From the NCBI GenBank assembly GCA_963796955.1, contig CAWCNJ010000011.1, positions 40,651 through 104,650 of the forward strand: a DNA stretch of 64,000 nucleotides, read 5' to 3'. The notes under the pieces were generated by a model, which did not search any database, was not told the DNA's origin, and was given only the letters and a program-made list of their open reading frames with translations. Of the stretch, positions 10,362 to 62,204 are shown piece after piece. Numbering within the stretch: position 1 is the stretch's first letter; each line of letters starts with the position of its first letter. Source of the DNA: Endomicrobiales bacterium. Lineage in GTDB: Bacteria; Elusimicrobiota; Endomicrobiia; Endomicrobiales; JALOBY01. The position numbers and the translations under genes are program-made.

Positions 10362-13300
10362 TTAACGGATCACCATGAGCTTTTGTTTAGCGCTTATGCC
10401 GGGGCCTTTAATGTAAACAATATAGGTGCCGCTCGCCATATCTTTGGGCAGCCATTCGAAAATGCCTTCGCTTACCCCTTCCATGGTATCCTCATGGACT
10501 TGTTTGCCGCCGATAGTGAAAATACGCATTTCAAAGCGGCCTACTGAGTCGCCCTTAAAATAGATCTTAGCGACATCCCCTGAATCAGGGTTAACCGTCC
10601 CTCTTCCGGCGGCTGAACCGAGTATCTTTATAGAACCGACACCGGTCATATCCATAACTGCCGCAGCACGGAAATTTAGTATCGTCCTTTGCTGAGTTAT
10701 CAATACGGACACCGATCTCTGGGGTGAAAACTCGTACCCGGCTTTCGATAGTTGAAGAACACACCTTGCGTTCAGGCTTAATCCCGTGAGCTGAAAATTA
10801 CCATTCGCATCCGTAATCGTGTTTTTTGAAACATCTCCCGATAAAACTACCGCTACGCCGGGGACGCCAATTTCTTTTCCATCCAGCACTTGACCGGTGA
10901 TGGTATATTGCACCGCAGCAGGAGCCGGCAAGGCGCCTGTAAAGTTCCAATTTCCAATGATACCGTTCAAAGATGCCGTGCTATAGCTTACGGGCGCGAA
11001 GGTGTAACTGCCAAACGTCGCCGGTGTTACCGTATATGGATAATTCACGTAAAGATTGCTTGTAAATTGGTACGAGCCGTCGGTACCGGTTAACAGACTC
11101 ACATTATCGGGAGATAGCACAACTGAGACGCCTGATAGTCCGTTAGAAGAAGCATCCCGCACATAACCACCTATGGCAAGCACTATCGGTGTCGCGTTAA
11201 AATCCCACTCCACATCGTTGGTCAGGCTTGTTGTGCTGTATTGGACAGGAGCGAACCAAAATCCGGTGTCGGCTGGTGCAACGCTAAATGACGCATTTTT
11301 CGGCAGGTTTAAAAAACTGTAGTAACCACTGCTATCCGTGCTGACCGAGCCACCGCTGCCGCCGGTAATATTAACAGTGATATTACTGACTCCTGCAGCG
11401 CCGTTCCTGACATAGCCGGTAATATTTCTTGTCTGACGCGTTCCCATAAAATTAGGATTAATAAGGTCGCTTGTCAGAGAATTAGTGGATATGGAAACAG
11501 GGGCGAACGTATATCCGCTCAGGGTTGGTGTAACAGTGTATGCGCTGTTCTGCGAAAGACCGCTGAACTGATATGAGCCGCCCGAATCCGTGGTATCCGA
11601 GCCCTGGGCGCCGCCGGTAAGTGTCACTAGAACATCAAGTAGTGCAACTGCGGTTACGCTGTCCCTTGCATAACCGCTGATTGAAGCCGTTGCAATACTT
11701 ACCGTGCCGGCAAAATTCCAGTTGCTTATGGTGCTTAACAATGCCGGCGAAGTACTTAGTTTTACCGGCGAGAACGCAAAACCCGCGCTGGAAGGCGTCA
11801 CCGTGTAATTAGCCGTTGAAGAAAGAGCGTTAAAGCTGTAATTGCCGCTGCCGTCAGTTACGGTACTTTTAGATGCTCCGCCGGCAAGCGTCATTTTTAC
11901 ACCGGGAAATGGGCTGGCGTCAGAAGCATGCGTAACAGCGCCGCTAATGGCCGCCGTAAGTACTGTGCCGGTGAAATTCCAATTTGAAAGAGCGCCCAGG
12001 AACGTTGCCGTGCTGAAACTGACCGGACTGAAAGAGTAACCGGGCATTTGTACGGTTACAGTATAATTGCTCCCTTCCGGCAAATTGCTGAACGAATATG
12101 AACCGCCGTTAGAAGTAGTCGATCGCGACGCACCGCCTGAAAGCTGTACTGTTGCGCCGTTAAGCTGTGCGCCGCCTCCCGTTTTTACCGTACCGCTTAT
12201 ATTTGCCGTCTTTACGGTACCTGCAAAATTTTGACCTGTCCAGTTTCCCGTTAAAGAAGCAGTGGTAACAGAAACCGGCGCGAACGTATAGCCCGCGCTT
12301 GAGGGTGTGACAGTATACGCAAGGGATTTCGCAAGGCTGGTAAATTGATAATTTCCTGAAGCATCGCTGATAGTAACAGCAGAAGCGCCTCCGGTAAGCT
12401 TCACGGACACTCCGCCAAGGGCCGAACCGCCGGAGGCTACCGAGCCGCTGATAGAATAGGTTGAATTTGCCGTTACTGTTACCGATACAATGGCTGAACC
12501 TGAGTCCCCATTGCTGTCAGTTGCGAGCAGAGTAGCCGTATAGCTTCCAGCCGAACTGTACACATGCGAGGGGCTCTGGCTCGCACTTGTTCCACCATCC
12601 CCAAAAGTCCAGGAATAGCCGGTTATAGTCCCGTTCGTCGTAGCAGCGCTCCCAGTAAAGTTTACGCTCAGAGGCGCATTTCCGTTCGTAGGCGTGCCGT
12701 TTGCTGAAGCAGTAACAACTGAGACAGGATTATAAACACTGGAAGGTATCTGGTTGCCAAGGTACTCCCAGATATATTTTGTTAAGGTTTGTGCAGAGCC
12801 GTCAATTGAAGTTCCCGAGCAAAAACCTCTTGCACCGTTAATTGCCGGTTTACCCCAGTTCTGATATGAGTATGCGCTCATATATGACTGAATAATATTC
12901 TCATATGGAAACGGCCACAAAGGATTGCTCGAAACAGTATTCCAGCCAGGATCCCCAAATAGAGAACCATCGATACCCACTTTATACAATATGTTTGGAC
13001 CGATGTCTCCAGTATTATCTCCTTTGCCAGATAAATTAGACGCTAACTCTTCCCTCGGTATATATTTAATTCCACCTGTACTGTTAGACGGGCTATATAT
13101 CGGGTTGAATGCATTCCCGTTGACGCTTACATAATCATTAGAACCAGCAGAAAATTGATTATATGTTGTTCCAAAAATATTATAAAGAACGTTATAATCA
13201 GATTGAACATTCCTGAAACCATTAGCACAGTTTTCGACAACACAATTTGACGCAAATGTTATCTTATAACCCCAGTTAGCGCCTTTTGAGCAATCTATTG

Positions 13301-14414
13301 CATAACCACTGCTGCAATTCTTAAACAAACAATTCCTCATTATAATTGTTTGTAAATATGTAGGGGTACCACCGGTATACCCCTGATTATCAAAACCACC
13401 TGCTGTTCCAATTGATGCGCAGTCAATTAATGAATTGTTATAAGTCCCACCATCCTCATGGGCATCCATTTGGGTTCCCTGCATACCCACATTGAAAGCC
13501 GGCATATTAACTTCAATACAGCCTCTATACGTTGACGTTGAACAACTATAACTATCAGAAGTGTTAGATCCGAACCACCATCCATATCCTGTTCCTAAAG
13601 TTGATGGTGATCCATTAAATATATATTGCGTCTGATCTCCATCAACCGCAATACAATTTTGATATTCACTATAATTTGTGCCATATAATCTAAAGGGGCT
13701 AGTTAACTGACTACCGGTATTTGATATGGATCTATCGGGTCTGCACACCAACCTTCGACCAATGCAATAATCCGAATCCAAGAATAAAAAGAAGTAATTT
13801 GCACTTCCACAAGCGAAACAATCCTGTAACAACACATAGGACATTCCCGTTATACAAAATGCATATGAACGTCCAACATTCATATCTGCTGGTAAAAAGT
13901 TAGCCGAATCTATTGAGCCACACCTTGTAACTTTAACATGGCCGTATTCCATAGGTGTTGGTCTCCATCCCTGAAACCCTATTCCCATGCAGGAACCACA
14001 AGCATTTACTACCGCATCCGGAGAAGAATGTTCAACCACAAAGCCATCAATAGCCAGATAATTTGAGTTGTGAAAATCCATCGGATCATACATGTATTGC
14101 CCATCAATAACTACCATAAATGGATTAGATGACTTGATAGTTGTATAGTTGCCACCAGTACCGTTCGGAGGGCAGTTTCCATTATGATAGCTGATCATAT
14201 TGTTTACCCCGGTATAAGTACCATCAGCTACTATCAGCGTATCATTCGGCGAAAGTTTCTTACATGATAACCCTATTGAACGCCATGGGGTCCCTAAACT
14301 CCCGCTTCCAGAATCTGAACCGGTCGGTGAAACATAATAGGTAGATGAAAACCCAATTCCTATATTTAAAACGATTATAAGAAAAGAACTGGAAAAAAGC
14401 TTTGATAACCTCAT
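10362..14414 (-). CDS. Large secreted protein: beta-helix domain + PKD + 7 carboxypeptidase-regulatory-like repeats + T9SS-like C-terminal domain
   Basis: Signal peptide; YYVSPTGSDS..GS...PW; PKD (WTFGDG..PSHVY..AGSYT); seven ~85-aa ISG.V..TD.SG.Y.F..L..YTVTP..GYTFAP repeats; ends SGTYIVYIKGPGISAKQKLMVIR. Confidence 0.85.
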   Translation of the reverse strand: MRLSKLFSSSFLIIVLNIGIGFSSTYYVSPTGSDSGSGSLGTPWRSIGLSCKKLSPNDTLIVADGTYTGVNNMISYHNGNCPPNGTGGNYTTIKSSNPFMVVIDGQYMYDPMDFHNSNYLAIDGFVVEHSSPDAVVNACGSCMGIGFQGWRPTPMEYGHVKVTRCGSIDSANFLPADMNVGRSYAFCITGMSYVLLQDCFACGSANYFFLFLDSDYCIGRRLVCRPDRSISNTGSQLTSPFRLYGTNYSEYQNCIAVDGDQTQYIFNGSPSTLGTGYGWWFGSNTSDSYSCSTSTYRGCIEVNMPAFNVGMQGTQMDAHEDGGTYNNSLIDCASIGTAGGFDNQGYTGGTPTYLQTIIMRNCLFKNCSSGYAIDCSKGANWGYKITFASNCVVENCANGFRNVQSDYNVLYNIFGTTYNQFSAGSNDYVSVNGNAFNPIYSPSNSTGGIKYIPREELASNLSGKGDNTGDIGPNILYKVGIDGSLFGDPGWNTVSSNPLWPFPYENIIQSYMSAYSYQNWGKPAINGARGFCSGTSIDGSAQTLTKYIWEYLGNQIPSSVYNPVSVVTASANGTPTNGNAPLSVNFTGSAATTNGTITGYSWTFGDGGTSASQSPSHVYSSAGSYTATLLATDSNGDSGSAIVSVTVTANSTYSISGSVASGGSALGGVSVKLTGGASAVTISDASGNYQFTSLAKSLAYTVTPSSAGYTFAPVSVTTASLTGNWTGQNFAGTVKTANISGTVKTGGGAQLNGATVQLSGGASRSTTSNGGSYSFSNLPEGSNYTVTVQMPGYSFSPVSFSTATFLGALSNWNFTGTVLTAAISGAVTHASDASPFPGVKMTLAGGASKSTVTDGSGNYSFNALSSTANYTVTPSSAGFAFSPVKLSTSPALLSTISNWNFAGTVSIATASISGYARDSVTAVALLDVLVTLTGGAQGSDTTDSGGSYQFSGLSQNSAYTVTPTLSGYTFAPVSISTNSLTSDLINPNFMGTRQTRNITGYVRNGAAGVSNITVNITGGSGGSVSTDSSGYYSFLNLPKNASFSVAPADTGFWFAPVQYSTTSLTNDVEWDFNATPIVLAIGGYVRDASSNGLSGVSVVLSPDNVSLLTGTDGSYQFTSNLYVNYPYTVTPATFGSYTFAPVSYSTASLNGIIGNWNFTGALPAPAAVQYTITGQVLDGKEIGVPGVAVVLSGDVSKNTITDANGNFQLTGLSLNARCVLQLSKAGYEFSPQRSVSVLITQQRTILNFRAAAVMDMTGVGSIKILGSAAGRGTVNPDSGDVAKIYFKGDSVGRFEMRIFTIGGKQVHEDTMEGVSEGIFEWLPKDMASGTYIVYIKGPGISAKQKLMVIR

Positions 14415-15436
14415 TTCTGCCCTCTGACAAAGCGATGTTTTTTAATAAAACTAAGAACGTTTTTTGATGAATGTTTTGTAAAATTGTTATACATAAAATA
14501 ATCGAATGAAAGGTTATTAAACAAAGGCATCCTATTATACAGCAATTTCAACAAGTACATAGGCGGGGCATCAACAAGTAGTACTGGATTTTTTTGCATC
14601 AGCCACAACACTTCGGAAAAACCTGATGGCATCATTATTAGGAGATCGCACTTTGACATGATTTCTGCTTCAGCGGCAAAACCTAAACCTTTCAGATATG
14701 TACATTTATCATTGGGTATGTCTAACCTAGCCTCAGTATATTTGTCACGGTAACTTCCTGCTTCGAAACCATTTTTTTCAAGTGTTTTGAGCGTATCCCC
14801 ATCATGCCGTTCTCGATTCATGCCGGCAATTATTATGTGGGCATTATACTCTTGGATCAGCCTATTAAATAAATCACTTTTGCTTTTTAAGATCGCTTGT
14901 GCTGAACTCTGGAAATATGGCCTAATGGCATCCTGGCTACTATTTCTGTACCTCCAGAGGTATCCTATGGTTATATTCTTTTTAAACAAATCGTCACTGA
15001 TATTATTAAGCATCATACACTCTGGGTAAAACTCTTTACCAAGGTCACTGAGCTCTAAAGCATAATTTTTCTCTCTAAAATCGTATTCCCTAATGGACTG
15101 CCATGGCTTAATATTGGTCTTAAAATTGAACTTTATCTTAATACTTTCTGGAAAATCGTGTATAAACCTGAGCTCATTATCTTTAATTTGAAACTGGAAA
15201 AATTCATCCACGCTTCTTGAAAGTATTTCATCGATTCCACAAACTTCATCAAGCATATTTAGATTATAGTGACTCATTATCAGCTTCTGCCGGTTATCTT
15301 TAAAGAATCCAATCCACTTTGTATCACCTCGCGTATTTCTTATCTGTTTTATTGCAGACAACTGTTCATAACAGTCCCCAAGAGCCCCATGTAATATTGT
15401 ACCTATCGTTCTAGTCATGTGTAGTTTCTCCTTCAA
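14411..15436 (-). CDS. Hypothetical protein, possibly divergent GT-B (GT9-like) transferase
   Basis: Long ORF in the operon; N-terminal HGALGD and CDLLIMMPSG resemble GT9 motifs. Confidence 0.5.
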   Translation of the reverse strand: MKEKLHMTRTIGTILHGALGDCYEQLSAIKQIRNTRGDTKWIGFFKDNRQKLIMSHYNLNMLDEVCGIDEILSRSVDEFFQFQIKDNELRFIHDFPESIKIKFNFKTNIKPWQSIREYDFREKNYALELSDLGKEFYPECMMLNNISDDLFKKNITIGYLWRYRNSSQDAIRPYFQSSAQAILKSKSDLFNRLIQEYNAHIIIAGMNRERHDGDTLKTLEKNGFEAGSYRDKYTEARLDIPNDKCTYLKGLGFAAEAEIMSKCDLLIMMPSGFSEVLWLMQKNPVLLVDAPPMYLLKLLYNRMPLFNNLSFDYFMYNNFTKHSSKNVLSFIKKHRFVRGQK

Positions 15437-15444
15437 TATTACAA

Positions 15445-16077
15445 TTAGCCGTCTAATCCTGTGAACATTAGCCCTTTATCTCTCAAAGTGTCTATGATTA
15501 CACCTAGCGCATCAACTACGTATTGATTATCATCATGAAACAGTATAATATCGCCTGGATTTACATTATCAATGACTCTATTTATTATATTTTGCGAACC
15601 AGTTTTCTCAAAATCTCCGCTTGAAAGGGTCCACAGAACTGTACAAATGCCATTCATCACACAAATTGCAAATTCAAGAAATGATATTTGGCCATAAACA
15701 GGCCTGTAAATATCTGTCTTTATATTAAATTTCTTAAATATTTGCATTGAACGATACACTTCATTCATTTGTTCCCGATTGCTATATGTATTCTTCCTAT
15801 TATGCGAATATGAATGCATTCCCACTGAATGCCCTTCATCGATTATTTGTTTTACAAGCCCTGGATTCGCTTCCATAGTTTGCCCGATCAAAAAAAATAC
15901 AGCCTTTGCATTTTTTCTTCTCAAAACATCTAGTATGGGCAAAGTAAATACAGGGTCTGGCCCATCATCAAATGTTAAAACCACTGCGTTATTTTTGCGT
16001 TTTACTGAAAAAAGGATAATGCTTCTTGTAAGAACCGCTTGCAGGACGTTTTTAATCAATCTTTTCATCTTACTCAT
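15445..16077 (-). CDS. NodB-type polysaccharide deacetylase
   Basis: TFDDGP, HSYSH, RPVYG, LFHD. Start placed at the ATGA overlap with the upstream gene. Confidence 0.88.
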   Translation of the reverse strand: MSKMKRLIKNVLQAVLTRSIILFSVKRKNNAVVLTFDDGPDPVFTLPILDVLRRKNAKAVFFLIGQTMEANPGLVKQIIDEGHSVGMHSYSHNRKNTYSNREQMNEVYRSMQIFKKFNIKTDIYRPVYGQISFLEFAICVMNGICTVLWTLSSGDFEKTGSQNIINRVIDNVNPGDIILFHDDNQYVVDALGVIIDTLRDKGLMFTGLDG

Positions 16078-17225
16078 AGCACAGTTCGGTTTGTATATTG
16101 TGATAATATTCCATAAAGTCGATCCGCATTTTCTTTCCAAGACAGTATCTCAGGCAGAATCGAAATTTCATTACTGTTCCACTTTTTGCTAATACAATAT
16201 CGCAATCCATTTGACAATGCCTCGATGTCACCAGGCATTACTAAAAGACCTGAATTTTCACTTTTTAAAAGCTCAGGGATACCTCCTACTTTCGTCGCTA
16301 ATACTGGTATACCGCATGAAAGAGCCTCGATCACAACATTCGGGCACCCTTCAAACAAGCTCGGAAGACAAAAAAGATCTGAAGCATTCATCCAGTCTGA
16401 TATTTGATCTTGTTTGATCCTACCTTTAAAAAATACTTTATCATTAACTGCTAATTGATCGGTTAACTCTTCCAATTCCTGCCTCAACTCACCATCGCCT
16501 ATCAAATACAATTGAAGATCTTCTTGTGCTCCGACCACTTCTTTGAATGCCTTAATTAGAAATGGAAGGCCTTTTGAGTAAGTGAGATTTCCTACAAACA
16601 ATAGTATTTTACCCGTACCCAAACCCAATTTGTTACGGCATCCATTTTTATCCTTAACTCTAAAAACAGTTTTATCAACTCCATTCAACAAAACAGTGAC
16701 ATTACTCTCAGAAACTCCGCATTCAACCATTCTATGCTTCAGTGCCGCGCTTACCGAAATCACATGATCCGCTTTAGAGAGGCAAAAAAAGATAAGTTTT
16801 CTACGTAGCAACCTTTTAGCGTACACATTAATGTCAGATCCTAACGCGCCAATTACTATAGGTTTCTTTAAGAATCTAGCTATCAGCCAGCTACCAAAAC
16901 CATCTGGGTAAACCCATGGTGCATATATAATGTCAAATTCAAAGTCCTTATATATTTTTGCAACAAACATCACAAGTGATAAGAAAAAGAAAAACCCATA
17001 TAATGATCTACCGATCTTAGGGAACATAAAATATCTCGGGTGATACACCTCTATGCCATCGATTAGTTCTTTTCTAGGCAAGCCTTTCAGCCTGTACCAA
17101 GGCAGGGGCGAAATAACTCTTACATCGCTAATCCTTGATAGTTCGAAACACTGGTTCCTATTGTATACACCCCTTGTAGGCTCTAGGGAGTTCGGATAAA
17201 GGTTAGTAATAACAAGTATTCTCAT
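16074..17225 (-). CDS. GT4 glycosyltransferase (TuaC-like)
   Basis: TNLYPN, WVYPDG, GSDIN, EGCPNVVIEA. Confidence 0.9.
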   Translation of the reverse strand: MRILVITNLYPNSLEPTRGVYNRNQCFELSRISDVRVISPLPWYRLKGLPRKELIDGIEVYHPRYFMFPKIGRSLYGFFFFLSLVMFVAKIYKDFEFDIIYAPWVYPDGFGSWLIARFLKKPIVIGALGSDINVYAKRLLRRKLIFFCLSKADHVISVSAALKHRMVECGVSESNVTVLLNGVDKTVFRVKDKNGCRNKLGLGTGKILLFVGNLTYSKGLPFLIKAFKEVVGAQEDLQLYLIGDGELRQELEELTDQLAVNDKVFFKGRIKQDQISDWMNASDLFCLPSLFEGCPNVVIEALSCGIPVLATKVGGIPELLKSENSGLLVMPGDIEALSNGLRYCISKKWNSNEISILPEILSWKENADRLYGILSQYTNRTVL

Positions 17226-17791
17226 AACTTAATGAAGTCAGCACTCCCCTGGTAATTTATAACTTTAGCAGGTATTCCGGCTACGACTGCGTTATCTGGG
17301 ACATCCTTAGTAACTACTGAATTCGCCCCTATTGCTACATTATTTCCAATTGTAATTTTGCCAATTACTACAGCCGAAACTCCAATGAAAACGTTATTTC
17401 CTATAACTGGGCAGCCTTTTCTTTCTCCTCTTCCACCCTGTCCTATTATCACCCCAACACTAACATTACAATTAGAGCCTATTACGGTTTTGCCATTTAT
17501 TACCAGCATGCCTGCATGTCCGATATAAAAACCTTCACCGATAGAAACTTCAAATGGTATGTAAATACCGGTAATCAATGAAAAAATCAAATGTGTTAAT
17601 CTTGTTATTAATTTAAGCATTTGCGCAAGCACTGGCACTTTAAAATTATTTCTAATCCATTTACCAAATCTGTAACTCATTACAATCCACAATGAGGGGT
17701 TGAAAATAACCAAGTCACAAAGCCCGCTTATACCAGTTGCTTGCTCTATGAGCATATATCTTTTTATGTCCTGTTTTACATATTTAAACAT
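17222..17791 (-). CDS. CysE-like left-handed beta-helix acetyltransferase
   Basis: IGEGFYIGH, hexapeptide repeats, GANSVVTKDVP..GIPAK. Confidence 0.88.
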   Translation of the reverse strand: MFKYVKQDIKRYMLIEQATGISGLCDLVIFNPSLWIVMSYRFGKWIRNNFKVPVLAQMLKLITRLTHLIFSLITGIYIPFEVSIGEGFYIGHAGMLVINGKTVIGSNCNVSVGVIIGQGGRGERKGCPVIGNNVFIGVSAVVIGKITIGNNVAIGANSVVTKDVPDNAVVAGIPAKVINYQGSADFIKL

Positions 17792-22437: not shown

Positions 22438-22464
22438 TACTTATGTCCCTAAGAGGAATTTGAC

Positions 22465-49320: not shown

Positions 49321-49353
49321 ATCCCACCCCCCAAACGCACAACGTGAGAATTA

Positions 49354-50481: not shown

Positions 50482-50497
50482 TTTTCCCCCGGAAATA

Positions 50498-51601: not shown

Positions 51602-51611
51602 GGCAAACCTC

Positions 51612-52946: not shown

Positions 52947-53506
52947 TATGTGTTCCCCCCGGGTTGCGCCCAAAAATGTTCCACCAGCTTTTTTTTCCAT
53001 GTCGAACGGTCGCCGTTTATGCCGAGCTCCGCCCATTTCGCGATGCTTTTTTCTTTATATTCCTTTATACCGGAGACCACCCGCGCGGGCACACCGGCCA
53101 CGATCACGTTGGGCGGCACGTCGCCGGTAACCACCGCGCCGGCGCCGACAACGGAGTTGGGGCCGATCGTGACACCATAAAGTATGATAGCGCCAACCCC
53201 AATGAAACTGTTATCTTTTACCTCGATCTTTCCGAATACGTTAAGATCCGGTATTTCTTTTCTGAACAAGCCCATGGAACCATCGTGGGTAATGAACCTG
53301 ACACCGGTGGTAATAGTGCAGTTGTTGCCGATCTTGATCAAATAAGGTTCCGTTCCAAAATCTTCCACGAAGATCCTGCAATGTGCCCCGATAACGACCC
53401 CTTGTTTCCTGAAATATTCGGCGACGGAATATTCATCATGGGCCATCAGCTCCAGTTTATTGAGCAGGGCGGGCAGCAGGTTCTTCAAGACCTTAAACAG
53501 TTTCAT
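52946..53506 (-). CDS. Left-handed beta-helix acyltransferase
   Basis: GTEPYLIKIG, ITHDG, GAGAVVT.DVP..GVPAR. Confidence 0.9.
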   Translation of the reverse strand: MKLFKVLKNLLPALLNKLELMAHDEYSVAEYFRKQGVVIGAHCRIFVEDFGTEPYLIKIGNNCTITTGVRFITHDGSMGLFRKEIPDLNVFGKIEVKDNSFIGVGAIILYGVTIGPNSVVGAGAVVTGDVPPNVIVAGVPARVVSGIKEYKEKSIAKWAELGINGDRSTWKKKLVEHFWAQPGGNT

Positions 53507-54977
53507 GCACTATCTCCTTACCTGAGAGCGATAGACTGATCCTTTCACGGATCTCCCGGTCAAAGACCAGTACCAGCAGGGTATATACCAGGAAACCTGA
53601 ACTTATTTTTGCCGGCAGGGAAATGATCGCTTTCCCGTAGTGCTGAACCCCTATCACCAGCGCCATAACGACGGAAAAAGCCAGATATTTTCCGATGTTG
53701 GCGTAATCGATCATGAACGGCAGATATTTGAAAGACTTCACGGCAAGCACGGCGAATAACAGCACGTAGGCGACCAGCGTGGCCAGAGCGGAGCCGACAA
53801 ACCCCATCCTCGGTATCAGCACGAAGTTCAGTGCGATATTGAACACGCCGGCGATAACCGTCCAGTAGGTTATGACCGCATTCTTTTTTTCTATGAATAA
53901 TCCCGCATTGAATATACTGCTCAAGCCGAATGCCAGCACACCCCAGGAGACATAGGGTATAACGGCATAGGCATGCTCGTATTTCTGCGAGGCTATCAAC
54001 ACGGTTATTTCCCGGCCCAGCATGTTCAGGCCGAACAGCGCCGGCAATGCCGCCATCATAAAATACCGCAGGCAATTCGAGAGAAATATTCCCGTGACCT
54101 CTTTGCCTTTCTGGGCGTGGATCTTCACATAGAGCGGCACGATCGCAAAACTCAGGGGAAATATCAGACTTTCCATAACAGACATGGCCAGATCATAGCC
54201 CGCCGAATACATGCCGACGGCGGCCGTGCTCATATAGAACAGGATAACGTAACGATCCCCCGAGTTAAGAATGATACTGGTCATTTCCGAACCTACCAGC
54301 GGCAAACCGTAGGCGAGCGATCTTTTAAAGAACGGCAGGTCAAAATACTTCAGGGAGATCCGCTGTTGACGGCTCAGGCGCAGCATCAGGTATACAAAGA
54401 TGATACATTCAGTGATCAGGAAGGCGAGGAATAATCCCATAAGCGACTTGAAAACGAAATACACCAATCCGACGCCCACGATCAGGGAGAAAAATTTGGC
54501 AATTACGTTGATGACATTGAAAAGGGCGGTATTTTGCTCGGCCCTGAGAAAGTTCTTAAGGATGGTGTTGGAGCACAAAAAGAAGACCCAGACGGCCGAA
54601 AGCAGGAAATATGACATAACCTCCGGCCTTTCTCTCATGGGATGGAGCGCGTATATGATCAACGCGTACAAGATACAGCCCAGGGCGACCGTGAAAACGG
54701 GGCCGAAGACCAGCGTGGAATAATATGAACGCAGGGAAACGCCCATCGTGTTCTGTTTAACTTCTTCATGGAACCTGATGATCGCGTTCTGCACACCCAT
54801 CTTCGCCGCCGCCATCACAAAAAATACCGTGGTGGATATGACCCCCAGAACGCCGTAGTCACTGACAGACAGCAGTCTTGTGTACACGGGAAATGATATA
54901 AAGGAGGCGGCCATAGTGAGAGCGTAGGCGATAAAATAATGGGAGGACTGCTTTACCATGGCGCGGAGTTCAGACAT
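53493..54977 (-). CDS. wzx: Wzx-type flippase
   Basis: YTRLLS..DYG, multi-TM, DRY...VG.YS. Confidence 0.88.
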   Translation of the reverse strand: MSELRAMVKQSSHYFIAYALTMAASFISFPVYTRLLSVSDYGVLGVISTTVFFVMAAAKMGVQNAIIRFHEEVKQNTMGVSLRSYYSTLVFGPVFTVALGCILYALIIYALHPMRERPEVMSYFLLSAVWVFFLCSNTILKNFLRAEQNTALFNVINVIAKFFSLIVGVGLVYFVFKSLMGLFLAFLITECIIFVYLMLRLSRQQRISLKYFDLPFFKRSLAYGLPLVGSEMTSIILNSGDRYVILFYMSTAAVGMYSAGYDLAMSVMESLIFPLSFAIVPLYVKIHAQKGKEVTGIFLSNCLRYFMMAALPALFGLNMLGREITVLIASQKYEHAYAVIPYVSWGVLAFGLSSIFNAGLFIEKKNAVITYWTVIAGVFNIALNFVLIPRMGFVGSALATLVAYVLLFAVLAVKSFKYLPFMIDYANIGKYLAFSVVMALVIGVQHYGKAIISLPAKISSGFLVYTLLVLVFDREIRERISLSLSGKEIVHETV

Positions 54978-56058
54978 GTTTCAACCTCCTGAGAGGCCGG
55001 AAGGACAAAAAGTATTTTATCCTTTCTTTTTCCAGTTCCAACTCGAGTTTGCTCTGGGAAAAACCGCCTAAAAAACTGGAGAGCATCCTATTAGTAACGC
55101 AGTATCTGTTAAGCGCGAAAAGTGAATCGCCGCTGTTGCCGTGCGCGATCAGGCTGCAGGCGGCCCGGTAGCCGCACTCTTTGACCAGCGCCATCATACT
55201 TTCGTTGAAATCCCCTTCATTACCGTTAGGGTAGGCGAAACAGGTCGGTTCCGCACCGGTATTTTCGTATATGAGTTTTCGTGACCCCGCCAGTTCGTAC
55301 CTGGCTTCCTGCGGGGACAGGGTCGTGAGTATCGTATGGGTCAGACCGTGGCTGCCGAAAGATATGTGCCCGGCGCCCATTTCCTGGACCATCGGCCAGG
55401 TCAGCATCAGGCTGTCGTCGTCGTTTTCCTGCCAGGCGGTCCCCGTTATGTCCACGAGGTAGCGGATGGCTTCATCCCTCTCGCCAGGCGTTGTGTATTT
55501 AAGCCTGTTGGCCAGGCCCATCGCCGCGCCGCTCCTGTGTTGATACGAACTCAGGCGGTAGAGCGGAAGATCGAGCTCCCGCAGGTCCACGACCGTGCGG
55601 TCGGTCGCCCTGAACGAATTGACTATCTGGTCGAACCAGAGCGGCCGGCCGTTATCAACGGACTGGGCGGAAAGAAATATGGTCGCGGGGATAGCATATC
55701 TCTTCAATAACGGAAAAGCGGTCGTATAGTTATCGCGATAACCGTCGTCAAACGTCAGCACCGTGGCATTCTCAGGGTAGCCCTTTCCCTCCTGCATGAG
55801 ATCGAGCGCGGTCTCCAGGGAGATAGGGGTGCAATGGGTGCGAATATGGTGCAGATGCGATTCGAATATCTCCGCGGAAAGATTCATGCCCAGCGGATCG
55901 AAGCTGTTATCACTGATCCGGTGATAGGCGAATATTTTAAAACTCCTGGACGTTTTTCGCACAATGAACGATATGCCGGTATATTTATAGACCGTCCCGA
56001 GCACGGTCTTGACCAGCTGCCGGACAAAAGAACCAAGCCGCGGACCGTCGCTTATCAT
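54970..56058 (-). CDS. Polysaccharide deacetylase
   Basis: YHRI, TFDDGYRDN, GSHGLTH, AYPNG. Confidence 0.88.
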   Translation of the reverse strand: MISDGPRLGSFVRQLVKTVLGTVYKYTGISFIVRKTSRSFKIFAYHRISDNSFDPLGMNLSAEIFESHLHHIRTHCTPISLETALDLMQEGKGYPENATVLTFDDGYRDNYTTAFPLLKRYAIPATIFLSAQSVDNGRPLWFDQIVNSFRATDRTVVDLRELDLPLYRLSSYQHRSGAAMGLANRLKYTTPGERDEAIRYLVDITGTAWQENDDDSLMLTWPMVQEMGAGHISFGSHGLTHTILTTLSPQEARYELAGSRKLIYENTGAEPTCFAYPNGNEGDFNESMMALVKECGYRAACSLIAHGNSGDSLFALNRYCVTNRMLSSFLGGFSQSKLELELEKERIKYFLSFRPLRRLKHV

Positions 56059-57209
56059 AAAGCCCGCCTTCCTGTTCCGGCATCCCTTAAAAGACGGCTG
56101 TACAGATTTTGCAGCTTGGCCATCATAACGCCGTTATCAAAAAATGCCGCGACCCTTGCGGAGCCGGCGGCCCCCATTTTGCGCCGCAGATCTTTGTCGC
56201 TCAGCAATGTATATATCGCCTCGGCAAGGCCAACCGGATCGCCGGGAGCCACCAGCAGGCCGGTTTCACCGTCTATGACAGCCTCGGGTGTGCCGCCCGT
56301 GTTCGTCGCGACCACCGGCTTACCCGCCGCCATGGATTCCAGGATCGTGTTCGAAAAACCTTCGTTATAGGAGGCCAGCACGGAGATATCGATGGCCGAC
56401 AACAACTCGGGAACGTTCTTATATTCTCCCGTGAAGATAACGTGTTCACTCAGGTTAAGACTTCTCACCAGCTCTTCCAATTCTTTACGATAGCTCAGAT
56501 CATCCGCCGAACCCGCTACCAAAAAACGCACGTTGGGGAATTTTTTTACCAGCATGGTCGCCGCCTCAAAGAAGACCTGATGGCCCTTGATCTTTCTCAG
56601 GGCCGCGACAATACCGACCACCACTGCATCAGGGGCGATCTTAAGTTTGGCGCGTATACCGACGGCATCATAGTGGGCCGTATAGGGTGCGCTGTCTATG
56701 CCGTTATGCACGGTCACCAGCCGGTGGTAGGGCACTTTTTGACTTTCAAAAATACGGTCTTTGACCGCCTCTGAGACCGTCACCACCCGGTCAAAGATGC
56801 GGTTCATCAGACTATAAAAGAAGACGTGCCGGGGCTTCAGACGGTAACCCATATCCCTTCTGCTGGAAATGACCACCGGTACCCCCGCAAGCTTCGCGAC
56901 GATGCCGCCGAAAAAATCCGACCCCTCATGATAGGTGACCACGATATCGATCTTACCGTCCCGCAGGAAACGCAGTAACCTCCATCCTTTTGTGAGCGCG
57001 CTCAGCGAATATATCTTTTTGATATTCAAATTGAGGTTTATTATGTTATGATCCGTAAGCCGCTCGGCGATAACTCCCTGCTGAAGACAAGCCACTATCG
57101 GCTCAAATTTGTCCTTATCAAGCCGGGTCACTACTTCGAACAGGTTTTTTTCCGCGCCAGCCATCTTATAGAAAACATCTATTATGAACAGTATCCTGAT
57201 CTTATCCAT
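56055..57209 (-). CDS. GT4 glycosyltransferase
   Basis: AGAEK, SSRRD, EGFSNTILESMAAG. Start MDKIR. Confidence 0.9.
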   Translation of the reverse strand: MDKIRILFIIDVFYKMAGAEKNLFEVVTRLDKDKFEPIVACLQQGVIAERLTDHNIINLNLNIKKIYSLSALTKGWRLLRFLRDGKIDIVVTYHEGSDFFGGIVAKLAGVPVVISSRRDMGYRLKPRHVFFYSLMNRIFDRVVTVSEAVKDRIFESQKVPYHRLVTVHNGIDSAPYTAHYDAVGIRAKLKIAPDAVVVGIVAALRKIKGHQVFFEAATMLVKKFPNVRFLVAGSADDLSYRKELEELVRSLNLSEHVIFTGEYKNVPELLSAIDISVLASYNEGFSNTILESMAAGKPVVATNTGGTPEAVIDGETGLLVAPGDPVGLAEAIYTLLSDKDLRRKMGAAGSARVAAFFDNGVMMAKLQNLYSRLLRDAGTGRRAL

Positions 57210-58332
57210 TGGTAGCCTCCTGTGGAATATGGAAGGCAGCCCGGAATCTGACAACCAGCCCCCTGAGCAAGCCGGCCAGATTTTCCGCATAATACAGCGC
57301 AAGACCCGCCAACGTCGTATTGTAAACCCGGTGGCGGACATGCTGCCGGCACAGGGAGGTCCACTTCATTTTATAGTCGTTGTTCTCGCCCAGCCAGTCG
57401 AACTCGGCGAGTTTATGGTCAAAACATTCTTTTATCACGTGCGTACTTAAAAAAACGCCGGGCGAAAAATGCGAGTATTCCTGATTAAAACCGATCTTCA
57501 TGGCAAAAAGCTTATTCGCGTATTCAATGGCGTACAAAAAGGCCACGGGCAGTGCATCGATCTTAAGTATCCAAAGACGCAGCATCCCGTTTTTCGCCAT
57601 GTCCCTGGCAATAGAATAATACAGGGTTATATCTTTTTCCGTACTCGCTATCGCCGTACCGTTTTCGTACTGCCAGGTCTTCCGTGAGACGGTTAAAAGT
57701 TCATCGAAGGCCTTGTCTATTTCCGCTCCCGTGTATTTAATAATGGTGCCGTCCCCGTTCCTGGCAAAAAGCTTGCTCGTATCGGAGATCTTTCTTCTCC
57801 ATCTTTTCGACAAAGAGGGCCAATAGGCTTCCCAGCTCTGAGCGATCTGTATGTACGGCGACAGGATCGAATTGAGCTTCGCACGTTTTTTGTTTTTACC
57901 GTCAAGCAGGTTTGCCAGCAGCAGTTCGCTTTCACACCCGTGCTGGAGAAAATCGAACAGGTACGTATCTATGTTCCTATAATGGACGGCCAGGTGATCC
58001 AGCATGGCCGTTACGACAGCCTTCTTATCGCCATTAACGATGAAATCAAACCTGTTCGTATGATAATTTGCCATAAAGCGCAGGGTCCTCAGAGGAATAC
58101 CGCACCGGTGTTCCAGCGTCAGCATACAGGGCGCGATACCGGTTATCCGCCCGTCTTCCTTTGCCAGCAGGATGAGCATTTCATTGCCCTCGCCGTAGCT
58201 TTGCCACCAACCCTTCAGCCATTGGAACGTTAAGAACGGAATGTGGACATCGCTTTTCTCTAAAACGCCGTTCCAGACCGGCTCCAGCTGCAGGAATCCT
58301 TCGAAAGATGTAACAGTCTCGATCATTATCAT
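57202..58332 (-). CDS. CelD/BcsL-like GNAT protein
   Basis: PFLTFQW..WW, GIAP, FSPG, FDWLG...YK..W. Confidence 0.87.
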   Translation of the reverse strand: MIMIETVTSFEGFLQLEPVWNGVLEKSDVHIPFLTFQWLKGWWQSYGEGNEMLILLAKEDGRITGIAPCMLTLEHRCGIPLRTLRFMANYHTNRFDFIVNGDKKAVVTAMLDHLAVHYRNIDTYLFDFLQHGCESELLLANLLDGKNKKRAKLNSILSPYIQIAQSWEAYWPSLSKRWRRKISDTSKLFARNGDGTIIKYTGAEIDKAFDELLTVSRKTWQYENGTAIASTEKDITLYYSIARDMAKNGMLRLWILKIDALPVAFLYAIEYANKLFAMKIGFNQEYSHFSPGVFLSTHVIKECFDHKLAEFDWLGENNDYKMKWTSLCRQHVRHRVYNTTLAGLALYYAENLAGLLRGLVVRFRAAFHIPQEATNG

Positions 58333-58333
58333 T

Positions 58334-59455
58334 TTACCGACCCTCCGTTGAAGTATCGGGGCGCAGTGTGAACAATCCTCTCGCTCCGGGCAGGATCACC
58401 GTTTCGATCGTATGCAGCAATCCGCCCGTCAGGGTGTCATTAAAGATAAAGTACTTACTGTGGCCACGCCTTGTCGAGGTAAGCTCTATTTTATACGGTT
58501 CATCTTTTCCCAAAAGATCCAGCTGCCGGATGCCGGCTTCGAACGAATCCCGTATCAAGCGTATCATCATAAATCTTCCGGGTGAAGAACTCTTGTAGGC
58601 AAGATCATAGCCTGTCTGCAGCCCGTATATGGTTTTTTTATATTCGCCGCTAAAGGTAAATGCTACAGGCCGATCGTTGTGTTTCAAAACATTCACTCTG
58701 AGCCAGCCGCTATCAGCGAAAAGCCGAAGTAACGAGCGGTAATAATCTATGCTGTTTTGCGAGCCGGCGATACCCGAGCCATGGTCATATTTCCAGGTCT
58801 TTTTAGAGATGGCTATTATTTCTTCAGTCGCGATCGAAACATCGGCGCAGCCGTATTGTACGATCCTGTAGCCGTTGGCGGGAACGAAATTCCCGGTGTA
58901 CCTGCCCATATTCCGTCTGAAATTCCCGGATTTCCCCTTGATATAATCGTCCCAGGAGCCCGCCATATTCAAATACGGGGAATTTTCACCTTCCATCTCC
59001 CGGTAGGCGGACTCATTCTCTAAAAGCCCGGTTTTTATCTGCATCTCCGTCTGGGAGCCGGTCTCTATCATGTCCAGATACACCATATCGTAATGCAGTT
59101 TATTATGCCGGAGATAGGAGAAGACCGCTTCGACCGCCTTATAGCTGCGGTCCGTGATGATCATCCCGGCGCGCGGCGTATAATAATTCGCCATAAAGGA
59201 AATAACTTTCACCGGTAATCCCCGGTGCCATATTTTCTTTTGTATAAGGGGGGCTATCGCGACCACATCCTTATCGGCATTCCTGACCAGCAACACCAGC
59301 ATCTCTACTCTGTGCCCAAACATACGCCACCAGTGTTTGAACCACTCAAAGGTCATAAAGAGCATATCACCGTCGCTGTCAGCCAGCACGGTGTTCCAGA
59401 GCGGTTCCAGGTTCAGAAACTCCTCATACGTTGTTACTGCCTTTACGTCAAGCAT
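58334..59455 (-). CDS. CelD/BcsL-like GNAT protein
   Basis: FMTFEW..WW, AIAPL, SSPG, LDLLG.DEPYK. Confidence 0.87.
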   Translation of the reverse strand: MLDVKAVTTYEEFLNLEPLWNTVLADSDGDMLFMTFEWFKHWWRMFGHRVEMLVLLVRNADKDVVAIAPLIQKKIWHRGLPVKVISFMANYYTPRAGMIITDRSYKAVEAVFSYLRHNKLHYDMVYLDMIETGSQTEMQIKTGLLENESAYREMEGENSPYLNMAGSWDDYIKGKSGNFRRNMGRYTGNFVPANGYRIVQYGCADVSIATEEIIAISKKTWKYDHGSGIAGSQNSIDYYRSLLRLFADSGWLRVNVLKHNDRPVAFTFSGEYKKTIYGLQTGYDLAYKSSSPGRFMMIRLIRDSFEAGIRQLDLLGKDEPYKIELTSTRRGHSKYFIFNDTLTGGLLHTIETVILPGARGLFTLRPDTSTEGR

Positions 59456-60590
59456 ACCGGCCTCCCCCGCCTTCAGCTGTTATTACATCGCCCGTTCCGG
59501 CGGTTTGCAACGATCTGCGCACGAAGAGTTTCAAATGCCGCTTCGCCAGGAAAAGATATCGTATGATCCGGGCTTTCAGCGTATCGTTCCAGATATACAG
59601 CTCCCTATTATTCCGGTATTGACTGGTCCAATGGAATTTATAGGATTCATCCCCCCGTAAAAAATCATATTCCTTCGACCCCCTGTTAATAGCCTCGTTT
59701 ATCATAAGCGCCGTCAGCAATAAACCGACGCTATATTTGCCGTACGCGGGGTCTATGCCGGATTGGTAATAGCTCATGACGCCCGCATATTGGAAGGCAT
59801 ACTGGCAGCCGGCGATGGCATCATTGATCCACAATACGCCCAATACGATACTGCCCGCGGCGAACAGCTCCCCGGCCAGCCGTTTATGGAATTGCCAGAA
59901 CGTTCCTTCCAGGGAGACTCCGCTCATTTTCTTTTCTTCCATCCTGCCCAGGTGCAGTTTATGGAGCGCGTCCATAACACCGTTTATTTGCTCCGGGTCG
60001 CTGCATATCTCGAACCGGACGTTGAATTTTTTACTTATTGTTTTCATCTTCCGTTTTATACCGTACCGGAGCTCTCCCGAGAGCGTTGCGGCGTATTCAT
60101 CCCACGTGGCCGGCAATGATATATAGGGGCAGATACCGCTGTCATAGATCATATCCGCGGAAGGCGGCAGATCGGCGCCCGTTAAAGACCGTTCATCCAG
60201 GTCGGTCAGACGCGTTACATCCCAGGAAGAATTAACCGTACGCACATACGTGAGTACCGCGGCGGTAAATTCTAATTTATGCTCGCTGCTTACAATAAAA
60301 CCCAGATGGTCCGGCGTGATCTCTCCGCCTGAGCCAATAAGCTCCACGCTCCTCAGAGGTATGAACAGTTTCCTGGGGCGTACCATCAGCGGCGCTATCG
60401 CTATGATGGTCCCCGCCCGGGAGCCGGTAAGGATCATCAGGGTTTTGCCTTCACCGTAAAAAGACCACCAGGCAGCGATCCATTCGTGCGTCATGAATAT
60501 GCTTTTAGCCTCGCTTTGTTCAAGCAGGGCGTTCCATTGCGGCCTCAACAGTTCAAATTCATGCAATTCGTTTATTACGTGTATTTCCAT
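59448..60590 (-). CDS. CelD/BcsL-like GNAT protein
   Basis: FMTHEW..WW, YYQSG.DP, YDFLRGDESYKFHW. Confidence 0.88.
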   Translation of the reverse strand: MEIHVINELHEFELLRPQWNALLEQSEAKSIFMTHEWIAAWWSFYGEGKTLMILTGSRAGTIIAIAPLMVRPRKLFIPLRSVELIGSGGEITPDHLGFIVSSEHKLEFTAAVLTYVRTVNSSWDVTRLTDLDERSLTGADLPPSADMIYDSGICPYISLPATWDEYAATLSGELRYGIKRKMKTISKKFNVRFEICSDPEQINGVMDALHKLHLGRMEEKKMSGVSLEGTFWQFHKRLAGELFAAGSIVLGVLWINDAIAGCQYAFQYAGVMSYYQSGIDPAYGKYSVGLLLTALMINEAINRGSKEYDFLRGDESYKFHWTSQYRNNRELYIWNDTLKARIIRYLFLAKRHLKLFVRRSLQTAGTGDVITAEGGGGRYA

Positions 60591-60598
60591 AGGGTCCT

Positions 60599-61207
60599 CT
60601 AGAGATATCCCTTCGCCAGATAAAAAGCGGTTTTCAAATATTCCTCATATACCGTCAAGAAACTTTGTTCCGATACCCACCAGTCATCATACCGGTACAT
60701 ACTGTTCTCAGCCGGACAGACCATGACCCGGATACCCGTGTCGCGGTAGGCCTTGGTAAATACCAGATGAGATCTTCTGGTGTGAAATGGCTCGGTCACG
60801 ACGATCAACGATCTGAAATGATGGTTAATACACTCTTTCCTGGTCAGTGTGGCATCATCACGGGTGCTTTTAGCGTTTAAAATTACTATCGTATCGTTCA
60901 GGGGAACGCCGCTTTTTACCGCCAGCCCCTGGGCGCTGACCGCCCAGTTGGCATGGTCTCCCTCGAAAAGCTCTATAGTTTCGCCTGTAAAGATCATTTT
61001 TCTGGCATAGTGTTGTTTATACAACTGAATGCCCTGCAATACGCGGTCCGTTCCGCCGCCCCCTAATACCAGCACGGCGTCGGCGGGAGCAAGCCGGTCC
61101 TGATAGATCAGAAAAGCGCCGATCCGTTCCAGCCAAAAAGCACGGAACGCTATGAATTGAAGCAGGAGCAGCGATAGTATCAGTGTATAGGTAATGGATC
61201 TTTTCAT
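60599..61207 (-). CDS. YdcF/DUF218 family protein (paralog of 7371)
   Basis: ADAVLVLGGG, STRDDA, VVTEPFHTRR, EYLK. Confidence 0.85.
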   Translation of the reverse strand: MKRSITYTLILSLLLLQFIAFRAFWLERIGAFLIYQDRLAPADAVLVLGGGGTDRVLQGIQLYKQHYARKMIFTGETIELFEGDHANWAVSAQGLAVKSGVPLNDTIVILNAKSTRDDATLTRKECINHHFRSLIVVTEPFHTRRSHLVFTKAYRDTGIRVMVCPAENSMYRYDDWWVSEQSFLTVYEEYLKTAFYLAKGYL

Positions 61208-61217: not shown

Positions 61218-62204
61218 TTACTCCGCCCCGAGTTTTATGATAATGCTGAAATATTGGACGTCGCCTTCTGAAATGAAGGAGGTATAGGCGTAATTAAAAC
61301 AGAGTTCCCTGGCATAGAGAAAATACAGATCAACGTTGGTAAGCGTAACGCCGATACCGCCGGTGAGATTGTTCGTATTGGCGCTGTTGGACTTATAGCC
61401 CGCCCGCAGGATCAGCGGGCCGACCAGATTGAATTCCGTCCCCAGGGCGAAACGGGGATCGTCGTTTATCGCTTTAATATAATCCGAACTCAATATCCAC
61501 TTTTTGTCGAACAGTCCGTAACTGATGCCCAGCCTTCCGGTTTGAGGCAGTTCACTGTCGCGGTCGGGGTTGTGGATATCCTTGTTGATATTCTGTATAG
61601 AGGCTCCAAGGGACAGCGGACAGTGCGCCTCATTCCATAAAAGGCCCGTATCGTACGCATTCCAGCTCAGCTCGTTGTTAAGGATCTCCTCTTTATAGAA
61701 CTTCGCGTTAATACCCGCCCTGAAAGCGCCGGCCGTCGCGTCGTCAAGCAGGGTCACACCATAGGCGGCCGTCATCACCTCGCCTTTCGCTTTCGGAACG
61801 CTTAAAAAATTACCGTTTTGATCTCCGGAAAAACGGTCCTGGCTGTACGTGTTATACGCGAAGGCCAGCGTCCCGGGATCCTCCAGGTTATCCACGTGCA
61901 TATCGCGAAGACTGTATACCAGCCCCAGAGAATACTGATCGATCTTACCGAACAGGGTTACTTTTTGCGCCGGCAGCTCCCAGTGGTCGAGCAAGGCAAG
62001 GCCCGCGGGGTTATAATTCAAACAGCCGGCGTCGTCACTGACCGCGGTATACGCGCCGCCGAGCGCGCCGGAGCGGGCATCCGGCACCAAACCGAAGACC
62101 CGTACGCTCGTCGGGCTCAGGCTGTTTACGGCTGCGCCCGCCGTTGAAACCGAGATGAACGCTATCATGGCTGCTCTGGATACGGCAAGGAACAGATCTC
62201 TCAT
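61218..62204 (-). CDS. PorV/PorQ-like outer-membrane beta-barrel, type 1 (paralog of 31863)
   Basis: DARSGALGGAYTAVSDD..LNYNPAGLA; same length (328 aa) as its paralog; start overlaps the wzc stop. Confidence 0.78.
   Translation of the reverse strand: MRDLFLAVSRAAMIAFISVSTAGAAVNSLSPTSVRVFGLVPDARSGALGGAYTAVSDDAGCLNYNPAGLALLDHWELPAQKVTLFGKIDQYSLGLVYSLRDMHVDNLEDPGTLAFAYNTYSQDRFSGDQNGNFLSVPKAKGEVMTAAYGVTLLDDATAGAFRAGINAKFYKEEILNNELSWNAYDTGLLWNEAHCPLSLGASIQNINKDIHNPDRDSELPQTGRLGISYGLFDKKWILSSDYIKAINDDPRFALGTEFNLVGPLILRAGYKSNSANTNNLTGGIGVTLTNVDLYFLYARELCFNYAYTSFISEGDVQYFSIIIKLGAE

Follow-up and report, generated by a model that had tools for sequence, protein, structure and literature searches.

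A 64,000-nt stretch of an Endomicrobiales genome from the phylum Elusimicrobiota (contig CAWCNJ010000011.1, positions 40651–104650, which is contig C11 of genome G000; hereafter the window) encodes two paralogous Wzx/Wzy-type polysaccharide loci, each with two β-barrel proteins of the PorV/PorQ family. Secreted proteins encoded in these loci end in one common C-terminal domain (CTD), and no exosortase is encoded in the window; all three features had been described in a first reading of the DNA alone (the original prediction), and all three stand. The barrels are homologous to PorV, with which they share a fold, the common tail is homologous to classic CTDs, and barrel and CTD genes are neighbors in this genome, in genomes of the same order, and across phyla. 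We hold with moderate confidence that the barrels are dedicated carriers or anchors for the CTD-bearing cargo of their own loci rather than sugar pores, and that each locus combines a Wzx/Wzy pathway with both barrels and cargo.

All probable genes of the window lie on the minus strand, and their families were assigned by Pfam and NCBIfam scans. Locus A spans approximately 10362–38988, and locus B runs from 39304 to the end of the window, which is also the end of the contig (base 64000). In the order of transcription, locus A begins with a Mor-like regulator, a sugar phosphotransferase, a 291-aa membrane protein, a tetratricopeptide repeat (TPR) protein, a protein for outer-membrane export of polysaccharide (OPX), a Wzz/GNVR protein, and a kinase. 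It continues with barrel A1, a nucleotide-sugar dehydrogenase, barrel A2, an epimerase, a GNAT, carbohydrate esterase family 4 (CE4) deacetylases, Wzy, a family 2 glycosyltransferase (GT2), Wzx, and family 4 glycosyltransferases (GT4s), and it ends with a 341-aa protein of no known family and a 1350-aa secreted protein. Locus B is transcribed in the order Wzz, kinase, barrel B1, DUF218, three GNATs, GT4, CE4, Wzx, Wzy, GT4, GT2, MBOAT, a 604-aa secreted protein, a broken propeller-fn3 gene, a dehydrogenase, and barrel B2. The head of locus B (the OPX gene and the genes upstream of it) is absent from the assembly, which comprises 2.10 Mb in 11 contigs and is 81% complete, a figure that applies to every absence from this genome reported below. 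The stretch originally marked out, which ended at 62204, does contain two real loci, but its right edge cuts off the kinase and the Wzz protein of locus B. In both loci, the type-1 barrel (A1, B1) follows the Wzc kinase and the type-2 barrel (A2, B2) follows the nucleotide-sugar dehydrogenase.

In the Bacteroidota system for type IX secretion (T9SS), PorV is the carrier of cargo with type-A CTDs and PorQ is the anchor of PorZ. The type-1 barrels A1 (31863–32849) and B1 (61218–62204), both assigned with NCBIfam and B1 also with a structural model, have 328 aa each and are 62% identical to one another. A profile of B1 and 59 relatives, compared with the sequences of the PDB, retrieves Flavobacterium PorV first (6h3i_F, E = 1.5e-38) and TodX next (E = 1.6e-7). 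The AlphaFold model of B1 (pLDDT 84.4, pTM 0.80) folds into 14 strands with a well-defined N-terminal hatch, and its top Foldseek match is PorV of the RemA-CTD-bound type IX complex (8gl6_F, E = 9.7e-10, TM score 0.67), followed by FadL. The proposed kinship of the barrels with PorV is thereby upheld, the profile and the fold of type 1 ranking PorV first, ahead of TodX and FadL, respectively. Type-1 orthologues from relatives reach 130–156 bits on NF033709 (PorV_fam), above its cut-off of 90 bits, the orthologue of genome G006 scoring 82 bits. On the equivalog models, the window barrels score 30–32 bits for PorV (cut-off 250 bits) and up to 63 bits for PorQ (cut-off 220 bits). By both sequence and fold, type 1 is thus PorV-like, and the window barrels are near-threshold or divergent members of the family.

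The type-2 barrels A2 (29278–30423; 381 aa with a Lys/Pro-rich tail; NCBIfam) and B2 (39304–40248; 314 aa) are about 33% identical to one another. A2 scores 63.1 bits on PorQ and 46.9 bits on PorV_fam, and B2 scores 46.9 bits on PorV_fam. Their profile aligns with that of the type-1 barrels over 284 columns in hhalign (99.35% probability, E = 6e-21), which places type 2 in the PorV family, at a greater distance. Pfam yields a weak PorP_SprF match for A2 only (21.5 bits) and weak Toluene_X matches among the window barrels. The features in common with PorV and PorQ of Bacteroidota (6h3i, 8gl6) are the 14 strands, the N-terminal hatch, an invariant NPAGL-type motif, and partner proteins that end in CTDs; the host differs in being a member of the Elusimicrobiota with about 24 cargo-paired paralogues per 2.1-Mb genome, compared with one general carrier.

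Three secreted proteins of the window, the 1350-aa, 604-aa, and propeller-fn3 proteins, end in one 88-aa domain (10365–10628, 45079–45342, and 41742–42005, respectively). Signal peptides are visible in the tail-bearing sequences, and the CTD strands occupy residues 515–590 in the model of the 604-aa protein. A hidden Markov model (HMM) of the 88-aa tail, used together with jackhmmer, retrieves 4 of the 8187 open reading frames (ORFs) of the genome. Three are in the window, the third of them (89 aa) being the frame-shifted end of the fn3 protein, and the fourth, on contig C3, is a 583-aa propeller protein paralogous to the 604-aa protein. This last protein (G000 C3:141816–146344; L032:13816–18344) follows a split DUF5693 gene and a polysaccharide pyruvyl transferase gene, with no barrel nearby. 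Thirteen variant CTDs have a mean column identity of 62%, and 12 of the 13 give weak matches to PF18962, the best with E = 7.3e-5; the tail of the 604-aa protein scores 13.9 bits (cut-off 27 bits). The variant-CTD profile aligns in hhalign, through to the last residue, with CTDs of the same lineage that pass the cut-offs (97.7%, E = 1.9e-12), and variant and classic CTDs have invariant G, W, G, and Y positions in common. Because the profile aligns with bona fide CTDs despite scores below the cut-offs, we assign the tail, on sequence grounds, as a divergent type-A-like CTD. The expectation that the tails would belong with TIGR04183 or PF18962 is therefore borne out as homology by hhalign but not as membership, the scores lying below both cut-offs.

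The 604-aa protein (45076–46890) consists of a signal peptide, a β-propeller, a Gly/Thr linker, and the variant CTD, which in its model (pLDDT 82) form a β-propeller, a disordered linker, and a β-sandwich CTD. Its best PDB folds are the oligogalacturonate lyases 3pe7 and 3c5m (E = 3e-14, TM score 0.64–0.65), far above generic WD40 propellers, and its N-terminal domain is found in other phyla with different C-terminal modules. The 1350-aa protein (10362–14414; Pfam, CTD HMM) has a signal peptide, an N-terminal region of about 540 aa, a PKD domain, seven CarboxypepD_reg domains, and the variant CTD. Its N-terminal 540 aa resemble right-handed β-helix/pectate lyase clusters of a protein atlas (score 0.96, to be taken as a lead only), and homologues with the same tail adjoin type-2 barrels in genomes G006 and G003. 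The 341-aa protein without a Pfam or NCBIfam family (14411–15436) is a conserved neighbor of the β-helix cargo; a homologue with 54% identity adjoins an 822-aa CTD protein in G006. By tblastn, three-frame reading, and Pfam, the ORFs at 41739–44964 read as a single remaining cargo gene, broken by three frameshifts (near 43810, 43400, and 42010), that encodes a propeller, a Big_5 Ig domain, four fn3 domains, and the variant CTD. Its ORFs (43759–44964, 43391–43741, 41968–43242, and 41739–42008) match a 1317-aa protein of G003. Enzymes acting on uronic acid polymers would fit these loci because the loci encode aminosugar dehydrogenases. Dehydrogenase A (30538–31832; Pfam) is frame-shifted near 30720, its two frames being recovered by tblastn with the locus B paralogue. 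Dehydrogenase B (40422–41720) scores 435.8 bits on TIGR03026 and 259–282 bits on WecC-type models, below their cut-offs, and the two enzymes appear closest in sequence to UDP-ManNAc/UDP-GlcNAc 6-dehydrogenases.

The arrangement of these genes was compared across the relatives (40 genomes labeled G0xx), in which ORFs were called with a simple script; as these genomes are few and akin to one another, the counts are descriptive. With the type-1 barrel as query (E 1e-10), matches are found in 13 of the 40 relatives and in none of the 26 genomes of family f10. Full-length type-1 orthologues with 26–35% identity occur in five loci, in G003 (two), G014, G013, and G006, and in all five the barrel follows OPX or Wzc. 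In three of the five, a cargo-less mini-CTD gene lies in between: both G003 loci have the order short OPX, Wzc, mini-CTD (113 or 165 aa), and barrel (137–140 bits), and in G014 a 123-aa mini-CTD stands between Wzc and the barrel. The G003 mini-CTD proteins consist of a signal peptide and a classic CTD only, and score 37.2 and 28.8 bits on TIGR04183, over its cut-off of 23 bits. With the type-2 barrel as query (E 1e-8), matches are found in 12 of 16 relatives. In both loci of G003 and in G006, the type-2 orthologue lies 26–27 kb downstream of type 1 on the same strand, at the tail of the locus, as in locus B of the window. A variant-CTD gene is next to the type-2 orthologue in 6 of 9 loci, in five of them directly upstream (G003 at L073, where a 127-aa CTD-only protein is included, G006, G013, G005, and G004) and in one (G003 at L074) separated from the barrel only by the dehydrogenase gene, the same order as in locus B. 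The order thus conserves this type of locus as a whole, and the synteny of wzc, barrel, and CTD genes that had been anticipated in related genomes does recur there (5/5 type-1 and 6/9 type-2 loci).

Proteins of the mini-CTD kind (signal peptide plus CTD, 113–190 aa) directly precede PorV-family barrel genes in the relatives (L057:11052–11549, L058:11002–11343, L061:1276–1647, L073:4517–4900) and in the host genome itself (C4:174880–175275, C4:168310–168882). Pairwise scores between variant CTDs and mini-CTDs give no answer as to whether the former descend from the latter. The cargo-less mini-CTDs might serve as a cap, a plug, or a signaling subunit.

The association of barrels with CTD genes extends well beyond these loci. 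The PorV_fam model matches the host genome in 29 places, which resolve into 24 genes and one contig-end fragment, eight of them over the cut-off, and the HMM assigns a terminal CTD to 20 ORFs of the genome. Of the 24 barrel genes, 10 have such an ORF directly upstream by HMM and 12 by inspection, the counts differing because the HMM missed two type-B-like tails; two further barrels have a CTD gene directly downstream. The wide survey covered 79 PorV-family loci (L079–L157; 68 with at least 900 bp of upstream sequence) in named genomes of many phyla, including Elusimicrobia, Ignavibacteria, Zixibacteria, WOR-3, and Gemmatimonadota, with a CTD HMM built from the CTDs of the present lineage. A CTD-ending ORF is directly upstream in 46 of the 79, and OPX or Wzc is within 8 kb in only 4, two of which are the relatives themselves. 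Pairing with a CTD gene is thus a general habit of the barrel family, and pairing with OPX-Wzc is special to the order; one-barrel-per-cargo gene pairs seem to be common well outside Bacteroidota.

Four proteins of the host genome (C2:77635–79368, C6:171302–173203, C6:114890–141343, and C4:188530–192138; one of 8817 aa) have type-B-like tails with a PNGDxxND motif, and each is directly followed by a longer PorV-family barrel (394–565 aa). A third OPX-Wzc locus of the genome (C8:340796–351866, L064) was dropped from the pattern, as its OPX has 576 aa, with a 290-aa N-terminal extension, and no barrel is present in the operon; 4 kb upstream, beyond genes on the opposite strand, are a PQQ-propeller CTD protein and a 506-aa barrel of its own.

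The original prediction placed the barrel/CTD module in the loci instead of an exosortase, and this part of it fails. No exosortase was found in the window or in the genome (PF09721, TIGR02602, and tblastn with XrtA and EpsI of G006), a result that for locus B covers only the part up to base 64000, where the contig stops short of the head genes, and in locus A no XrtA or EpsI gene lies between the TPR and OPX genes because these two overlap. The homologous locus of G006 combines XrtA and EpsI with both barrel types and variant-CTD cargo, in the order XrtA, EpsI, OPX, Wzc, barrel, XrtA-type amidotransferase, and acyl-CoA ligase. G014, in which an exosortase gene stands at a contig end right after the Mor, sugar transferase, membrane protein, and TPR genes, probably also combines the two. 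The order of the head genes of locus A is the same in G003, G006, and G014, and XrtA follows TPR in G006 and G014. Because an exosortase was found in only 2 of the 40 relatives (G006 and G014) and coexists with the barrels in G006 and probably in G014, the sorting modules are not alternatives. The window nevertheless resembles XrtA/PEP-CTERM exopolysaccharide (EPS) loci: its OPX, chain-length determinant, and kinase score best on models of the XrtA system, and the head order (sugar transferase, membrane protein, TPR, OPX, Wzc) is that of the relatives with XrtA and EpsI. It is unlike them in having no exosortase or EpsI in window or genome, and all of its matches to XrtA-system models are below the cut-offs.

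If the barrels are carriers or anchors, the cargo (the PL22-like propeller, β-helix, and propeller-fn3 proteins) would cross the inner membrane by Sec and pass the outer membrane through the SprA-like barrel of the genome. The type-2 barrel of the locus would then take over the cargo through the variant CTD and hold it noncovalently at the surface, in the way that PorP/SprF-like barrels hold type-B CTD proteins; there the cargo could cut or remodel the aminouronic acid polymer made by the same locus. By analogy with these cognate shuttles, type 2 would be the carrier or anchor of the enzymes of its own locus. The mini-CTD partner in relatives makes it most likely that the type-1 barrel belongs to the same class of CTD partners, and its constant position behind OPX-Wzc points to a further role in linking the module to the export machine. 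PorP-like barrels reportedly anchor type-B CTD proteins, in a study of PorP-like anchoring. For Flavobacterium, excerpts of PMC12618676 describe cognate pairs of shuttle and CTD genes. The PorP/SprF-like shuttles of Flavobacterium and Porphyromonas give a close parallel, with one barrel per cargo encoded next to it and the barrels required for secretion and for noncovalent surface anchoring (PMC12618676), and the window follows a like gene logic. The window differs in that its tails are type-A-like rather than type B, its barrels score on the PorV/PorQ models, and its pairs lie inside polysaccharide loci.

Several observations weigh against assigning the barrels to CTD cargo. None of the window's own barrel genes comes right after a CTD gene, A1 and B1 being preceded by the kinase and A2 and B2 by the dehydrogenase; a CTD neighbor is lacking in three of the nine type-2 loci (two in G014, on C8 and C38, and one in G016); and in G013 the type-1 barrel comes directly after OPX with no CTD gene between them. 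That the type-1 barrel travels with OPX-Wzc in all five loci of the relatives fits a role in export equally well. None of the four window barrels reaches the NF033709 cut-off, A1 (78.7 bits) and B1 (83.9 bits) falling just short of it over nearly their full length, and a profile of type-2 barrels only gives no PorV match among PDB sequences. The window CTDs are likewise under the curated PF18962 cut-off, and the 1350-aa protein scores 17.4 bits on TIGR04183 (21.4 bits in the genome scan), also below the cut-off. As to the T9SS parts that had been suggested for a genome search, a SprA-like gene is present, in an 1828-aa frame with four TIGR04189 pieces (55.5, 47.1, 36.6, and 30.4 bits, all short of the 200-bit cut-off), and is kept in 37 of the 40 relatives. 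PorU, GldK, GldL, and GldM of the Bacteroidota T9SS were not found in the 81% complete genome; for GldL and GldM, the control genomes gave no match either. Finally, the window contains at least seven frameshifts (near 30720, 38050, 42010, 43400, 43810, and 62820 and at 63400–63900), which are not clearly located at long homopolymers. Three of them interrupt the propeller-fn3 cargo; the others affect dehydrogenase A, the kinase and Wzz of locus B, and probably the sugar transferase. Their occurrence in several cargo and export genes could be due to assembly error or decay.

The place of the type-1 barrel invites the alternative that the short Class-3 OPX exports through it or docks to it at the outer membrane, the nearby CTD genes being accessory, in a composite translocon like WzaB/WzpB of Myxococcus but with a barrel of the PorV/FadL type; we regard this as rather unlikely. 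According to passages in PMC9603273 and PMC12819527, Class-3 OPX proteins require a neighboring β-barrel porin. The window OPX (35006–35770; Pfam, NCBIfam, and sequence) has 254 aa and a lipobox, Poly_export and one SLBB domain, and an approximately 30-aa C-terminal extension; it lacks Wza_C and with it an outer-membrane-spanning domain. No PgaA-type barrel that could serve as porin was found in the genome, where the PgaA model matched TPR parts only. Type 1 follows OPX/Wzc in both window loci and in all five of the relatives, one of them an exosortase-type locus and one an OPX-barrel pair, and OPX orthologues (45–52% identity) occur only in genomes with a type-1 barrel. The C-terminal extension is common to the OPX of G003, G006, and G013 and absent from that of family f10, and on its sequence it is a candidate docking motif. 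The extension (window 35006–35100; L057, L058, L059, L060) is of the type F-[IL]-[ST]-x-L-L-S-P, and the short OPX of family f10 (L161, L162) end at VPQS[IM]F. The Class-3 OPX/Wzp system of Myxococcus xanthus (PMC9603273, PMC12819527) resembles the window in its short lipidated OPX without an outer-membrane helix and in a barrel from the same operon. The porins described in the passages of PMC9603273 are, however, 18-strand PgaA-like barrels, whereas the type-1 barrel has 14 strands and an N-terminal hatch, is nearest to PorV/FadL, and follows Wzc instead of standing beside OPX (except in G013). A mini-CTD gene intervenes between Wzc and the barrel in three of the five orthologous loci, and the family at large pairs with CTD genes, OPX/Wzc being found in 4 of 79 loci, half of them those of relatives. 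PorV and FadL are not known to be open glycan channels. The co-occurrence with OPX, moreover, is that of the whole locus and does not single out OPX.

The other alternatives concern the fate of the cargo and the nature of the barrels. In the full form of the original prediction, the CTD would be cleaved after export and the cargo joined covalently to the locus glycan through an amino-acid-bearing sugar, as type IX cargo is to the A-LPS of Porphyromonas, which we consider improbable. Excerpts of PMC7468200 report that VimE, a CE4 enzyme, and VimA, related to pepcterm_femAB, make the seryl/glycyl sugar that carries the cargo in P. gingivalis, and that VimE/VimA-like genes occur beside sortase systems and EPS loci. 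Enzymes of the Wbp/Vim kinds described there (PMC7468200) are present in the window, namely an aminosugar 6-dehydrogenase, CE4 deacetylases, four FemAB-like PF13480 GNATs, and GT4s, and the mini-CTDs of the relatives match the CTD of PorZ best (63 and 59 bits). Such enzyme sets are common, however, in EPS loci without protein sorting, and the resemblance does not extend to families: at E 0.1 no GNAT matches TIGR03019 (VimA-type), and the matches of the CE4s to TIGR03006 are marginal. Nor is there a candidate transpeptidase, because no PorU body, Peptidase_C25, or exosortase was found in the 81% complete genome; all seven matches of the PorU model are to its CTD part only, and the C25 search gave no match in the controls either. 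Hardly more credible, in our estimate, is a combination in which a PorV-family barrel, with or without a cargo-less CTD subunit, is the outer-membrane partner of the short OPX while the second barrel delivers locus-encoded enzymes to the same polymer, to which a hypothetical transpeptidase joins them covalently through aminoacylated sugars; if true, a single machine of Elusimicrobiota would perform both type IX-style sorting and glycan export, and a further kind of polysaccharide translocon would exist. Least credible, and in our view highly improbable, is that the barrels, like FadL, import or export hydrophobic compounds such as a lipid carrier or acyl donors and have no connection to protein sorting. 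FadL/TodX is next-best by fold and profile, Toluene_X matches weakly, and the loci encode an MBOAT and acyltransferases; the profile search nonetheless puts PorV 30 orders of magnitude ahead of FadL/TodX, and the pairing of CTD and barrel genes in the genome, the order, and other phyla would be left unexplained.

Type IX secretion is regarded as a system of Bacteroidota (the FCB group) with one general carrier, PorV, for type-A tails. The literature searched yielded no account of PorV-type barrels within polysaccharide loci, and in the papers examined for it, Elusimicrobia and type IX secretion are mentioned together only incidentally. In the present case, a phylum outside the FCB group keeps two specialized PorV-family barrels within a conserved polysaccharide locus; each barrel type goes with a CTD subtype of its own, one of the subtypes being almost confined to these loci. 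The loci thereby offer a handle on how CTD subtypes and carriers specify one another, on how enzymes that act on capsule or slime layers are placed beside their polymer, and on what bridges the outer membrane for short OPX proteins, which are very common, where a PgaA-like porin is absent. That exosortase and CTD/barrel modules can share a locus bears on the old question of what the proteins of exosortase loci are attached to.

The rest of both loci is that of a Wzx/Wzy pathway. The head of locus A (35733–38988; Pfam) comprises, in the order of coordinates, the TPR protein, the 291-aa membrane protein, the sugar phosphotransferase (37461–38490, probably frame-shifted), and the Mor-like regulator. 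Wzc is split in locus A (32846–35006; Pfam, NCBIfam) into a tyrosine autokinase (32846–33613) and a Wzz/GNVR co-polymerase (33597–35006); in locus B (62204–64000; tblastn), the kinase is frame-shifted near 62820 and the Wzz/GNVR protein is frame-shifted and cut by the contig end. The core of locus A (15445–29186; Pfam) encodes, again by coordinate, a CE4, a GT4, a hexapeptide acyltransferase, a GT4, Wzx, a GT2, and Wzy, followed by two CE4s, a PF13480 GNAT, a 370-aa protein without a known family, and the epimerase. That of locus B (46877–61207; Pfam, NCBIfam) encodes a DUF1574-like protein, an MBOAT, a GT2, a GT4, Wzy, and a hexapeptide acyltransferase, then Wzx, a CE4, a GT4, three PF13480 GNATs, and DUF218. 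The GC content is 0.35–0.37 over 14001–24000, the GT/Wzx/Wzy core of locus A, compared with 0.48–0.56 in the rest of the window, as would be expected if a serotype-like cassette had been swapped in.

A further set of glycan genes adjoins the tail of locus A at 1983–10358; it encodes a 1146-aa glycoside phosphorylase of the GH94/SOGP type and then GT2, CE4, DUF218, GT2, and GT4. At the left edge of the window are a HEPN-domain protein with a small overlapping ORF (606–1329) and an ArsR-type regulator (122–529).

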